From Eledone cirrhosa (lineage: Eukaryota): a DNA stretch of 64,000 bases. The position numbers and the translations under genes are program-made. The notes beneath the pieces are model-generated. The model did no database searches. It was given only the letters and a program-made list of their open reading frames with translations, and had not been told where the DNA came from. The stretch lies in assembly GCA_964016885.1 (NCBI GenBank), contig OZ024741.1, forward strand, positions 281,790,001-281,854,000, in the 5' to 3' direction. Below are positions 2,497-60,361 of this stretch, piece by piece (the first letter of the stretch is position 1; each line of letters starts with the position of its first letter).

Positions 2497-5400
2497 TATC
2501 TAACCAATCAACCCATTGATCTACCCATCAACACAATGTCAGAATGAAACTCTAGACAACATTGAAATGATGGTGTAAATAAACAGTGGTCAAATGTTCA
2601 GAATATATTTCTAATTTGAAAATATAAAATATTAACAGTTATATATATATATATTTATACTGTATATACTCGAATATAAGCCAACCTCTTATTTGATATC
2701 TGAAAAATAGGTAAAAATACAAAGTCTCTTTATAAGCCAAGGCAGGTAATCAACACATGTTTAGATGGTCTGATTTTAAAATTCTCTTGAGTGAAGAGTT
2801 AATATTTTCATATCTGAAATATTTGTTTAGAGTATAGTTTCTGTTTCACAACTCCAGTATGTAATGATTTTTTACCAAATTCTGACTGTTGTGAAGGTCA
2901 TATTCATTCAAAACATAAACAAAACAATAGGAAGTATGAATTTTCTGACGAAAGTGAAACCCATATGATATTCACTTCCAAAGTAAAACTGGTATAATAT
3001 TCACCTCACTTTCATAAAATATTGACCTTGAATATAAGTTCCCTCCCCCTATAACCATTGATTTTTTTTTTGTAACATATTTCTCTATATATAAGAGAGA
3101 GAGAGAGTGTGTATACACACACACATATATATATACATATATATATATATATACATATATATATATATATACATATATACATATACATATATATACATAC
3201 ATATATATACATATATATACATACATATATATACATATATACATATATATATATATATACATATATATACATACATATATATACATACATATATATACAT
3301 ATATACATATATATACATATATACATATACACATATATATACATATATACATATACACATATATATACATATATACATATATATACATATATACATATAC
3401 ACATATATATACATATATACATATACACATATATATACATATATACATATACATATATATACATATATACATATATATACATATATACATATACATATAT
3501 ATACATATATACATATACATATATACATATACATATATATACATATATACATATATATACATATATACATATATATACATATATACATATACACATATAT
3601 ATACATATATACATATACATATATATACATATATACATATATATACATATATACATATATATATATATATACATATATATATATATACATATACATATAC
3701 ATATACATATACATATACATATATATATATATACATATATATACATATATATACATATATATATATATATATATATATATATATATACATATATATACAT
3801 ATATATATATATATATACATATATATACATATATATATATATATATATACATATATATACATATATATATATATATATATACATATATATATACATATAT
3901 ACATATATATATACATATATACATATATATATACATATATACATATATATATACATATATATATACATATATACATATATATATACATATATATATACAT
4001 ATATACATATATATATACATATATATATACATATATATATACATATATACATATATATATACATATATATATATACATATATACATATATATATACATAT
4101 ATATATACATATATACATATATATATATATATATACATATATATATATATATACATATATATATATATATACATATATATATATATATATACATATATAT
4201 ATATATATATACATATATATATATATATATACATATATATATATATATATACATATATATATATACATACATATATATATATATACATACATATATATAT
4301 ATATATACATTATATATATATATACATATACATATATGTATATATATATATATATATGTATATATATACATATATATGTATATATATACATATATATATA
4401 CATATATATGTATATATATACATATATATGTATATATATACATATATATGTATATATATACATATATATGTATATATATACATATATATGTATATATATA
4501 CATATATATGTATATATATACATATATATGTATATATATACATATATATACATATATACACATATATATACATGTATATATACACATATATATACATGTA
4601 TATATACACATATATATACATGTATATATACACATATGTACATGTATATATACACATATATATACATGTATATATACATGTATATATACACATATATATA
4701 CACATATATATACACATATATACACACATATATACACATGTATATATACACATGTATATATACACACATATGTATATATATGTATACATACACATATATA
4801 CATACACATATATATACATACACATATATATACATACACATATATATACATACACATATATATATACACATATATATATATACATATATATATATACACA
4901 TATATATATACACATATATATATACACATATATATATACACATATATATATACACATATATATATACACATATATATATATACACATATATATATATACA
5001 CATATATATATATACATACACATATATATATATACATACACATATATATATATACATACACATATATATATATACATACACATATATATATATACATACA
5101 CATATATATATATACATACACATATATATATATACATACACATATATATATATACATACATACACATATATGTGTGTATGTATACATATATATATATATA
5201 TATATATATATATATGTATATACATACACATATGTGTGTATGTATACATATATATATATATATATATATATATGTATATATATACATATATATGTATACA
5301 TACACATATGTATACATACACATATATATGTATACATACACATATATATGTATGTGTATATATATACACACACACACTCTCGTATATAGAAAAATATGTT

Positions 5401-5766
5401 ATAAAAAAAAAATTAAAAAAATAAAAAATTATACTCTAAACAAATATTTCAGATATGAAAATATTAACTCTTCACTCAAGAGAATTTTAAAATCACACCA
5501 TCTAAACATGTGTTGATTACCTGCCTTGGCTTATAAAGAGACTTTGTATTTTTACCTATTTTTCAGATATCAAATAAGAGGTTGGCTTATATTCGAGTAT
5601 ATACAGTATAAATATATATATATATAACTCTTAATATTTTATATTTTCAAATTAGAAATATATTCTGAACATTTGACCACTGTTTATTTACACCATTTCA
5701 ATGTTGTCTAGAGTTTCATTCTTACATTGTGTTGATGGGTAGATCAATGGGTTGATTGGTTAGATA
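2497..5766. repeat. Large inverted duplication (fold-back) enclosing a TA/CA microsatellite
   Basis: 2497-2836 is the reverse complement of 5430-5766 (about 3 substitutions and one 3-bp indel). 3061-3110 is the reverse complement of ~5370-5413. 2837-3060 is missing from the right arm. Confidence 0.95.
3108..5377. repeat. ~2.27-kb alternating purine/pyrimidine (TA/CA/TG) compound microsatellite
   Basis: Direct reading. It produces the spurious Y/I/T/H/V/M ORFs in all six frames. Confidence 0.98.
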
Positions 5767-5826
5767 TGTGTGTATATATATATATATATATATATATACA
5801 CATATATATATATCATCATCATCATT

Positions 5827-7101
5827 GAGAAGAAATTCCAAACATGGAAGCATGGCCTAGAATCAAAAGACCTTAAAATTAACCTGTCTAAGACTAAAGT
5901 TCTAGTTTGTAGGAAGGAAAATAGGGAACCAGTCCTATCCGGGAAATGGCCATGCTCAGTGTGTAGGAAAGGAGTAGGTAGAAACTCCATTTTATGTCCC
6001 AAATGCAAAGTATGGGTGCATAAAAGATGTAGTGGGATCACAGGTAAGCTTACTAAGAATATAGATTTTATATGTGGCCGGTGCTCTGGTGCAATAAGTA
6101 GCAGCAAGTGCCCACAGAATACTAGCTCATTCCATTGCACAGATGGTTCTATAGAAATAGTGGACACCTTCCGTTACTTGGGTGACAAAATCAGCAGTGG
6201 TGGAGGGTGCTCTGAAAGTACAGTAGCTAGAGTCAGAACTGGATGGAAAAAGTTCAGAGAGCTTATACCACTATTGGCCGCTAAAGGGTTCTCTCTAAAA
6301 ATGAAAGGCAAGCTGTATGATGCCTGCATACGAACATCAATGTTTCATGGCAGTGAGACTTGGGCATTGATGCAAAGGATATACGCAGACTGGAGAGGAA
6401 CAAAGCTTGCATGCTCCGCTGGATGTGTAATAGTAATATACGTGAACGGCAAAGCATATATGAACTAAGGGAAAAATTAGAAATAAGAGGGATCAGATGT
6501 TTATTCGAGAAGACTACGTTGGTACAGTCACGTGATGTGCATGAAAGACGACAGCTGTATAAAAAAGTGCTGGGCAATAAAAATAGACGGTAGCCACGGA
6601 GTAAGCAGACCCAGAAAAACCTGGGACGACTTGATAAATTCCGACCTCACACACTTACACCTCTCCAAGACAATGTCACTGGACCGAGATCTTTGGCGCT
6701 ACACAGTCATACAGAAGACCCGCCTTACCTAAGTACAAAGTGAAACCTACTACAGTCAGTAGGCACCTCTAACAAAAATACACCCTGTCCCACTACCCCC
6801 ACCCCATCCACACCACCCCTTTCAATGTAAAGTTATGTTGGTACCACAACATCCAGTCCGAAACAAATGAGGTCGTGTAGGTGTCATGACAAAAAAAAGA
6901 CAGTCCACGCTGTAATGTGGCCGTGTAGGTAACACGGTAAAAACCTCCCAGTCCACACTATAAACGTGGTTGGTGTTAGGAAGGGCATCCAGCCATAGAA
7001 AACCCGCCAGACAGTCCTATACGAGCAAGACAACCATCTTGCCTCAAGTGGGAAAATTCCCGTCCAAACCCATGCAAGCGTGGAAGATGGACGATGATGA
7101 T
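5827..7101 (+). mobile_element. 5'-truncated RTE-clade LINE (C-terminal RT region, Cys/His finger, 3' UTR, (GAT)n tail), frameshifted
   Basis: Highly similar to 50238-51645. Motifs LKINLSKTKVL, CSVC..CPKC..HKRC..CGRC, FRYLG, HGSETW, RPRKTWD. Frameshifts near 6370 and 6500. Confidence 0.95.
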
Positions 7102-7292
7102 ACATATATACATATATATATATACATCATATATACATACATATGGTGGCTGTCAACTCGTTTTCGAGTACGGCCACTACTTTATATCCATGTAGGAGAA
7201 CTCCTACCGATGCGCTGAACGAGTGTGACTTTTTAGTCCAGCCAGCGACTTAAAAACTCTGGTACAAACACTACACTTGTGACAATTCTTGA

Positions 7293-58612: not shown

Positions 58613-59424
58613 TCATTTACTGCATATCTCACAATGATTCGTATTAACTACACTACTCAATTATTTCAGAATTTTATTTGTCTAGCAAGTGACATGATCT
58701 GATACCATGTTTTGAAACTAAAAACACTGCATGGAGGAGTAATTTTAGCTATTTAAAAACAGAAAAACTTAACTTTGTACAAAAACATTATTTATTTTCC
58801 AGTGTCAATTGCAGTACAACTATGTCAATGACCTGGTCGCAGAGTGCTGCAAAAATGTTGAGACTAAGAAAGTATATATATATATATATATATATCGTTG
58901 AGGGAAGATGTGGTAGAGGTAGACCACGGGGGGGGGGGCATGGACGGGGGTGGTGAGAACAGACCTCAGACTGTGTGTGTGTGTGTGTGTATATATATAC
59001 TTTCTTAGTCTCAACATTTTTGCAGCACTCTGCGACCAGGTCATTGACATAGTTGTACTGCAATTGTGAACATTTTGACACTGGAAAATAAATAATGTTT
59101 TTGTACAAAGTTAAGTTTTTCTGTTTTTAAATAGCTAAAATTACTCCTCCATGCAGTGTTTTTAGTTTCAAAACATGGTATCAGATCATGTCACTTGCTA
59201 GACAAATAAAATTCTGAAATAATTGAGTAGTGTAGTTAATACGAATCATTGTGAGATATGCAGTAAATGACTAAGTTTTTTAAAAGTCAGTACATTGCAG
59301 TAGAAAATACAAAGGGCAAATGATGGTAAATGAAACCAAACAAAATAATGTTTTACCCAGTGTTATTATGCATGATATTTCAGGGCCATTACCCTCTTTT
59401 CAGATGTAGAGCTGAAAGAGTCCA
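58479..59424. repeat. Large inverted duplication (fold-back) with (TA)n, RTE fragment and (TG)n in the loop
   Basis: 58479-58882 is the reverse complement of 58990-59424 (about 2 substitutions, two indels). Loop 58897-58970 matches 60173-60242. Confidence 0.96.
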
Positions 59425-59525
59425 TATATATATATATATATATATATATATGTATATATATATATATATATATATATATATATATAAATATATAAATATA
59501 TATATATATATATATATATATAAAT
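59425..59525. repeat. (TA)n-rich microsatellite at the fold-back/RTE junction
   Basis: Direct reading. Confidence 0.95.
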
Positions 59526-59571
59526 AATGTTAACAGTTTTTCTGTGTTTTTAAATAGTAAAAATGACAATA

Positions 59572-60361
59572 AATTCTATAAAATGCACACAATGCAGATC
59601 CTGGGTACACAAGAGATGTAGCGAGATAGCAGGCAAACTAACAGGTAGGGAGAAATATGTATGCAGTAGATGTACAGGGAAATTAGACAGTAGAAGTCGC
59701 ATTGATAGACACATTTTTCAAATGCAGGCGGGTGTTATAGAAGTGGTGGATAGCTTCCAGTACCTAGGAGATCAGATTAGCATGGGAGGGTATGTTCTAA
59801 AGGCCATAGTATCTAGAATAAGGACGGGTTGGAAGAAGTTTAGGGAGCTGCTTCCTCTGCTGACGAAGAAGGGTTTATCCCTGCATACGAAAGGCCAGTT
59901 ATATGATGCATGTGTGACGAGCGCGATGCTGCATGTTGGTGGAACATGGGCGGCGACTGCGGGGAATGTGCGACAGCTGGAGAGAAATGGGGCGAGTGTG
60001 CTCCGTTGGATGTGCAATGTCAATGTGCGTGAACGACTCAGCATGAATGTGATGAGAGAGAAACTGTCTGAGAGGGATAGAATGTAGTGTACGGGAGAGG
60101 AGACTGAGGTGGTATGGACATGTGATGCGCATGGAGGATGACCAATGGGTGAAGAAGTGCCAGGAAATGCCAGTTGAGGGAAGACGTGGTAGAAGTAGAC
60201 CACGGGGGGGCATGGGCGGGAGTGGCGAGAACAGACCTCAGATCGCTGAAGCTCACGGTGGAGATAAAGGACTGTGACAAGTGGAGAGATGCTGTGCTGA
60301 ATAAGACCCGTCCCACCCTTGCAAGCAGGGAAGAGCAGACGTAAAATGATGATGATGATGA
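59572..60361 (+). mobile_element. 5'-truncated RTE LINE (second subfamily), G-enriched
   Basis: [51 protein letters not shown]; (GAT)5 tail. Confidence 0.93.

Follow-up and report, generated by a model that had tools for sequence, protein, structure and literature searches.

Could the insertion of a retrotransposon turn its own flanking DNA into a palindrome? This question is raised by a stretch of the genome of Eledone cirrhosa (OZ024741.1:281790001-281854000, assembly GCA_964016885.1), which is 64,000 nucleotides long and is called the window here; positions below are counted within it. The window contains three large inverted duplications, termed cases a, b and c. Cases a and c lie next to 5'-truncated RTE-like copies, which are retrotransposons without long terminal repeats (non-LTR), and case b lies in a CRE-like element. 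An earlier note on this DNA had proposed that a 3' end at a (TA)n tract snaps back, copies upstream DNA and is joined to the complementary DNA (cDNA) of the retrotransposon. Our analysis points to a partly different answer. The palindromes are local inverted duplications that probably arose when DNA breaks were repaired by fold-back templated insertion, likely independently of the neighbouring retrotransposition, and the adjacency of the RTEs is likely explained by shared TA targeting, which would make the RTEs bystanders and not the cause.

The three inverted duplications, detected by comparing the window with itself and aligning the arms, lie where the earlier note had placed them (Table 1). 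The arms are identical at 334/337 positions in case a (main arms 2497-2836 versus 5430-5766), 210/220 in case b and 402/404 in case c. As the same note had claimed, they differ by internal deletions: two gaps in the right arm of case a amount to 3 bp and about 220 bp, the right arm of case b is short of about 115-120 bp, and in case c it is the left arm that lacks sequence. The 20-bp segment missing there is present in relatives, and the 11-bp one is matched less cleanly. The genome of 3.0 Gb was searched for further copies of the arms, and the best 40 candidates were scored. Among these candidates, no second near-identical copy of the arms of a, b or c was found; the other matches reach 72-80% over long stretches and are higher only over short pieces. 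The arm ends fall within old repeats, which carry on at the template side. The three inverted duplications are confirmed to be real and locus-specific.

Then, are the palindromes as old as the elements beside them? For case c, the RTE copy contains an internal clock. It has 16 private A>G changes among 230 A and only 1 T>C, compared with 61 A>G changes at 14194 positions in 30 relatives. The changes lie at 59938-59998, 60178 and 60206-60220, in common with the piece of this RTE found in the loop (58897-58970). Such clustering occurs in this copy alone among 63 (10 in 70 columns versus at most 3 elsewhere) and is likely the result of ADAR editing of the sense-strand RNA, fixed by reverse transcription; RTE c would thus be a fossil record of RNA editing in DNA. 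As a family-wide trait the ADAR footprint was rejected (A>G versus T>C, P=0.45 and 0.11). Because of this excess, A>G and CpG changes were excluded from the clock. With this exclusion 14 arm substitutions are expected at the age of the RTE and 2 are seen (P=1e-4); a first estimate of 34, inflated by the A>G editing, was replaced. In addition, the loop piece has the A>G changes but lacks three later substitutions of RTE c, and therefore should date from about the time of insertion. It differs from RTE c at 5/70 positions, the arms from each other at 2/404 (P=0.001). The arms of case c thus look younger than RTE c.

The earlier note had described one order for cases a and c, that is, flank, TA-rich loop, inverted flank, (TA)n, sense RTE and (GAT)n. 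The overall order holds, whereas the loop of case c is not only TA-rich, since it contains the RTE piece. At the inner junction of case c, 10 nt of TA lie on either side, and RTE c starts at about 59570, after a 48-nt remnant. The idea that this spacer is an RTE-templated flank copy was dropped, because it scores higher against family members (60 and 59) than against the local flank (47). The old palindromic family in which the left arm starts covers 58258-58657 here; it is about 350-400 bp long, with many copies of 70-88% that match on both strands.

Case b does not lie at the 5' junction of a truncated element, as had been claimed for all three and is correct for a and c, but is folded about 20 nt or more inside the element. 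The sequence at 17186-17205 resembles the sequence just upstream of the palindrome centre in relatives (9/15 score above the 95th percentile of random 30-mers), which suggests that the inverted copy was inserted inside the element. At the centre lies a 5-bp inverted repeat that the CRE-like family itself possesses, no TA run is present, and little or no sequence was lost at the break, judging from relatives. Both arms share deletions of about 46, 13, 9 and 8 bp relative to the relatives, and have 6 derived bases in common versus 3 and 4 that are arm-specific. The arms of case b look younger than the CRE-like element, and judged from its sequence case b was inserted into a CRE-like copy that had decayed before. 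The best 40 genome candidates include no close source copy, and none of 28 relatives lies inside an inverted repeat. In 14/16 relatives the loop is in family order on the minus strand, while the flank and the 3' untranslated region (UTR) are native on the plus strand. Since loop and flank are thus opposed, we infer a later flip of the centre; it fits these orientations best, and an alternative with the deletions placed in the template arm was dropped.

For case a, the inner pair of arms is more diverged than the outer pair (P=0.002, for the least repetitive block of the inner pair). Consequently, case a reflects either two events or a single one in which 220 bp were skipped, and the inner pair may be either an older event or a faster-mutating part of the same one. 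At the inner junction the inverted microhomology is imperfect only, with a 7/8 match. A reversed stub of the GAT tail sits between the (TA)n tract and the 5' end of RTE a. Inspection by eye of 60 other RTE copies, over the 40 bases preceding each, revealed no such stub, and the stub could reflect a second priming on the tail.

If retrotransposition made such palindromes, would they be enriched at the 5' ends of RTEs, as the earlier note proposed to check? We sampled 60 RTE copies picked solely by similarity to RTE a and c, and 20 copies of a third RTE family, which have shorter flanks and 4 uncertain 5' ends; the independent targeted copies number 79. A census added 20 RTE segments of at least 300 bp in 800 kb outside the window. 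An inverted repeat was counted as adjacent if it ended within 150 non-simple bases of an RTE junction. With arms of at least 80 bp, adjacent inverted repeats occur at 6/60 of the 5' junctions and 4/60 of the 3' ends; with arms of at least 50 bp, at 6/60 and 8/60, respectively. The background is 369/16451 random positions. Inverted repeats at RTE ends therefore exceed the background, yet symmetrically at 5' and 3' ends. The six 5' cases, two of which are duplicates of one locus, can all be placed in repeat families on the basis of further copies, shared tails or a Penelope match in the open reading frame (ORF). The weakest assignment is that of L217 (L-numbers are locus labels of the analysis, and C3 and C4 below are genome blocks sampled), with 1-2 other matches, one of them to a family confirmed by genome search. 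No inverted repeat lies at the 5' end of any of the 20 copies of the third family, and the only census segment with one (1/20) has an arm with at least 40 copies at 91-95%. In total, adjacent inverted repeats occur at 7/99 RTE 5' ends outside the window, all family-assigned and mostly Penelope-like, and an inverted copy of the RTE's own flank at none of the 99 (0/79 targeted and 0/20 census), which puts the 95% upper bound on the rate of flank copies at about 3%.

The TA tracts offer a connection. A (TA)n tract is found at the 5' junction of 29/80 RTE copies (20/60 and 9/20 in the two targeted samples) versus 2.6% of random positions. Structures at the left edge of a tract can therefore come to adjoin an RTE 5' end. 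Inverted repeats end at 83/1028 TA-tract edges without an RTE and at 1/16 with one, and TA microsatellites are abundant in the window. Moreover, a palindrome of the same build occurs where the tie to a retroelement, assumed in the earlier note, is absent. Block C4 (200 kb) contains 36 inverted repeats and no RTE segment, and at L077:8131-L078:12 in this block a flank copy (277/279 identical) encloses a TA array in its loop and is unique in the genome search; by its build, it is case a without the RTE. Thus the fold-back half of the proposed route is supported by the microhomology in b and c and by this twin, whereas the joining to cDNA as a general route is not supported, given the null result at 99 5' ends, the likeness of 5' and 3' ends and the younger arms of c and b. 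Another fold-back at a TA tract without an RTE, local and 61 bp long, was seen at L022:2418-5528; genome-wide uniqueness was checked for L077 only.

Most palindromes with this appearance belong to something else. The inverted-repeat census covered 864 kb and gave 105 rows, 103 of them distinct, of which 23 fall in one cluster and are largely paired copies of one very abundant short repeat. Among the other 80, which are not short interspersed nuclear elements (SINEs), 55 are bordered by a microsatellite on one outer side and not the other, and 61 have a hammerhead-like pattern, a shared tail or a Penelope ORF match, either of their own or elsewhere in their cluster. The rule behind the 61/80 is permissive, since its two patterns arise by chance at 4% and 3%. 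The hammerhead-like pattern CTGANGA..GAAA is present in census arms (4% by chance); an Rfam scan at the gathering threshold found no hammerhead ribozyme in the census look-alikes. A GIY-YIG domain was detected in 2 of 5 loop ORFs, above the Pfam cut-off in L083 (E=1.1e-5) and below it in L073 (E=0.0016). Penelope-like elements with inverted arms and one-sided (TA)n were observed at L073:4039-9766 (with a 750-aa ORF), L083:6650-L084:2477 and L066:6273-9817. The configuration of arm, loop, inverted arm and (TA)n is therefore common genome-wide and belongs mostly to Penelope-like families, as already published. The window arms belong to no multi-copy family with a shared tail and have no ORF combining a reverse transcriptase (RT) with GIY-YIG; the arms of a and c contain no hammerhead-like motif and no Penelope ORF match. 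A genome-wide class of local fold-backs (32 events labelled 'local') was given up, because the label was too loose: two of three arms searched are families with at least 40 matches at 91-97%, and the third is unique. A candidate for a flank copy on the 3' side, L207, was discarded for its several 92-98% copies on one chromosome. Separately, block C3 contains at 113563-119126 (L060) a tandem array of a 310-bp unit, 100% identical, with a hammerhead-like motif and a direction that flips midway.

How could such palindromes arise? The starting point would be a DNA break, which in a and c would fall in the (TA)n tract and in b in the interior of the decayed CRE-like element. In yeast, structure-selective nucleases cut AT/TA repeats (PMC12972899). 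After resection, one 3' end would pair with an inverted microhomology within the same strand (in c the 10 nt of TA, in b the 5-bp repeat and in a the 7/8 match), and fold-back synthesis would copy 0.34-0.43 kb outward before unwinding. The copied end would be joined to the other break end over 1-4 nt, and later deletions, with probably the centre flip in b, would leave the arms uneven.

Several points weigh against breakage independent of the RTEs. No empty allele was seen. The arms of case a could not be dated apart from RTE a, since its 21 private differences in 1266 columns predict 8.4 arm differences at equal age and 4 are seen (P=0.08). The flip inferred in b implies exchange between arms, and such exchange could have reset the clock of case c as well, but only if it left two indels there untouched. 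The RTE 5' ends that bear TA have inverted repeats in 4/20 cases versus 8.1% of TA edges (P=0.08). Flank copies lie at 2/4 RTE 5' ends in the window and 0/99 outside it, and apart from these, 800 kb yielded a single confirmed local fold-back of at least 200 bp; with fold-backs so rare, pure independence hardly accounts for a pair of RTE-adjacent cases within a single window. No valid P value can be attached to this excess, because the window was selected for the feature. Finally, fold-back insertions in yeast measure 2-150 bp (PMC11724301) and are shorter than these.

Could RTE insertion nevertheless produce the palindromes at a minority of sites, a (TA)n end snapping back, copying the flank and joining the cDNA, with arm exchange hiding the age of case c? 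We consider this unlikely. It would account for the two flank copies in the window, agrees with the age of case a, and could draw on the probable arm exchange in b and on the untidy 5' junctions, namely the reversed tail stub in a and the insertion-age RTE piece in the loop of c. However, it has to face the 99 other 5' ends without a flank copy and the likeness of 5' and 3' ends, the clock of case c by both estimates with two indels left unconverted, and the RTE-free twin, while case b involves another clade, lies inside its element and has no close source among the candidates scored. It is quite improbable, too, that endonucleases or RTs of TA-targeting retroelements, Penelope-like or RTE, nicked (TA)n tracts in trans and that an inverted second-strand step copied the host flank. 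Penelope-like elements are abundant, and their insertions here show the same pattern, with a short AT microhomology where (TA)n and copied arm join, but the arms of a and c show neither a hammerhead-like motif nor a Penelope ORF match, b has no TA, and TA repeats break in yeast without any retroelement (PMC12972899). As a more general and rather speculative possibility, (TA)n tracts might be shared docking sites cut repeatedly by RTE or Penelope-like endonucleases, with healing that copies 60-430 bp of host flank, sometimes together with an RTE insertion (case a), and thereby seeds palindromes. If retroelement enzymes do trigger host fold-backs, transposon activity would be linked to the birth of palindromes.

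That the arms are the ends of foldback elements, miniature inverted-repeat transposable elements (MITEs) or Penelope-like elements, or two insertions of one family, holds for most census look-alikes, and the arms do contain old repeats; for the three window palindromes it is very unlikely, since the arms have no other near-identical copy among the candidates scored and their ends lie inside old elements. A fold-back chimera of assembly or library is very improbable in our view, even though the assembly of long TA arrays is difficult and no single read or contig was seen across a whole locus. Substitutions, as well as indels of 11-220 bp, distinguish the arms from each other. In addition, short-read contigs (runs X4-X6, possibly from the assembly's own sample) carry case c in both forms, that of the left arm at 58436-58565 (depth 10.1) and that of the right arm at 59008-59254 (depth 13.3), where unique DNA has a depth of about 9; these arm-specific versions make a chimera unlikely. 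None of the contigs spans locus c, and the bin 58812-58962 is uncovered, which has no weight for or against. Fold-back templated insertion at breaks remains the reading that we prefer.

Table 1. Features of the three inverted duplications, in window positions
Feature	Positions	Strand	Remark
Case a left arm (template, native flank)	2497-2840	+	Old dispersed repeat (about 2658-3030) crosses its inner end
Case a inner low-complexity arm	3057-3135	+	63/75 versus 5343-5417
Case a loop, 2.2-kb (TA/CA) microsatellite array	3121-5370	none	
Case a inner inverted copy	5343-5417	-	Partner of 3057-3135
Case a right arm, inverted copy	5426-5766	-	337/341
(TG/TA)n tract, then (TCA)n stub	5767-5826		Tract 5767-5813; stub 5813-5826, reverse of GAT tail
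RTE-like non-LTR copy a	5827-7101	+	5'-truncated; (GAT)n tail, TA-rich sequence beyond; private divergence 1.7%
CRE-like 5' remnant	17186-17205	+	Directly upstream of palindrome centre in relatives
Case b left arm, inverted CRE-like 3' fragment	17204-17539	-	
Case b loop, 8 nt	17540-17547		Inside native 5-bp inverted repeat; minus strand gives family order
Case b right arm	17548-17855	+	Arm to 17769, running on into family 3' UTR
Old palindromic repeat-family member	58258-58611		88% arms; case c left arm starts inside
Case c left arm	58479-58882	+	Lacks 20-bp and 11-bp segments
74-nt piece of RTE c (60173-60242) in loop	58897-58970	+	Between (TA)12 and (TG)n; carries private A>G changes of RTE c
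Case c right arm, abutting (AT)n	58990-59424	-	402/404
(AT)51 tract	59424-59526		
48-nt old-repeat remnant	59520-59567		Closer to distant family members than to local flank
RTE-like copy c	59572-60361	+	5'-truncated; (GAT)n tail; A>G clusters 59938-59998 and 60206-60220

The RTE-like copies have GAT tails, 5' truncations and variable 5' ends. A longer relative at 49314-51146 contains RVT_1 and a PHD-like finger, and the finger is kept in a and c, for which the label RTE, taken from the earlier note, is putative. The label CRE for case b is likewise putative: the translations contain VET.G..G...FL...RVSLA..RGNA, which may correspond to the C-terminal restriction-like endonuclease motif of CRE elements. 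The RTE copy at 49314-51619 has an ORF of 611 aa and belongs to a subfamily with copies elsewhere that are 99-100% identical, which suggests recent activity. The RTE copies at L100, L105 and L110, and those at L215 and L247, have common flanks and therefore were apparently duplicated along with their surroundings. A 1.3-kb element, presumably Tc1/mariner-like from its look, is present in two copies of opposite orientation (7293-8536 and 61351-62655, 89% identical).

In the literature searched, whose coverage was partial, we found no paper on retrotransposon-coupled flank palindromes, on RTE targeting of (TA)n or on edited RTE copies. Recently active RTE and Penelope-like families are described in Octopus vulgaris (PMC13282606), and type I hammerheads have been placed in pLTRs (bioRxiv 10.64898/2026.07.22.740005). 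Twin priming of L1 (PMC2912911) likewise gives an inversion at a non-LTR 5' junction, but it inverts element sequence from the same RNA, whereas here the flank (a, c) or a decayed copy (b) was duplicated; the one feature reminiscent of twin priming is the reversed tail stub of 14 nt in case a. Short-range template switching (PMC7954356) makes and perfects local inverted repeats and is a candidate for the later flip and for arm homogenisation. However, it was studied within tens to hundreds of nucleotides of mutation clusters, and the available part of that paper draws no link to (TA)n or retroelements.

Two other known systems are close. Penelope-like insertions can contain an inverted 5'-truncated copy and a 30-40 bp tail at one end; Naiad elements target (TA)n, and the group is present in Octopus (PMC8557442). 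Their inverted pLTR arrangement has the same arm, loop and inverted arm at (TA)n targets and accounts for most look-alikes, which would swamp the proposed enrichment test unless removed. The window arms differ in that they are unique host or old-repeat DNA, with no family, GIY-YIG ORF or hammerhead-like motif. Fold-back insertion, described in yeast by a hybrid fold-back model (PMC11724301) and in human by large inverted duplications (PMC3907307), has the same inverted adjacent copy, spacer, microhomology priming and end-joining capture. The copies here are 340-430 bp long, occur in a germ-line assembly and lie at (TA)n in two cases, whereas those in yeast are 2-150 bp and those in human of multi-gene scale. 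The window would thus offer natural germ-line fold-back insertions of a few hundred bases at TA tracts, and new here are the natural cases of a known repair outcome, which a known element structure mimics.

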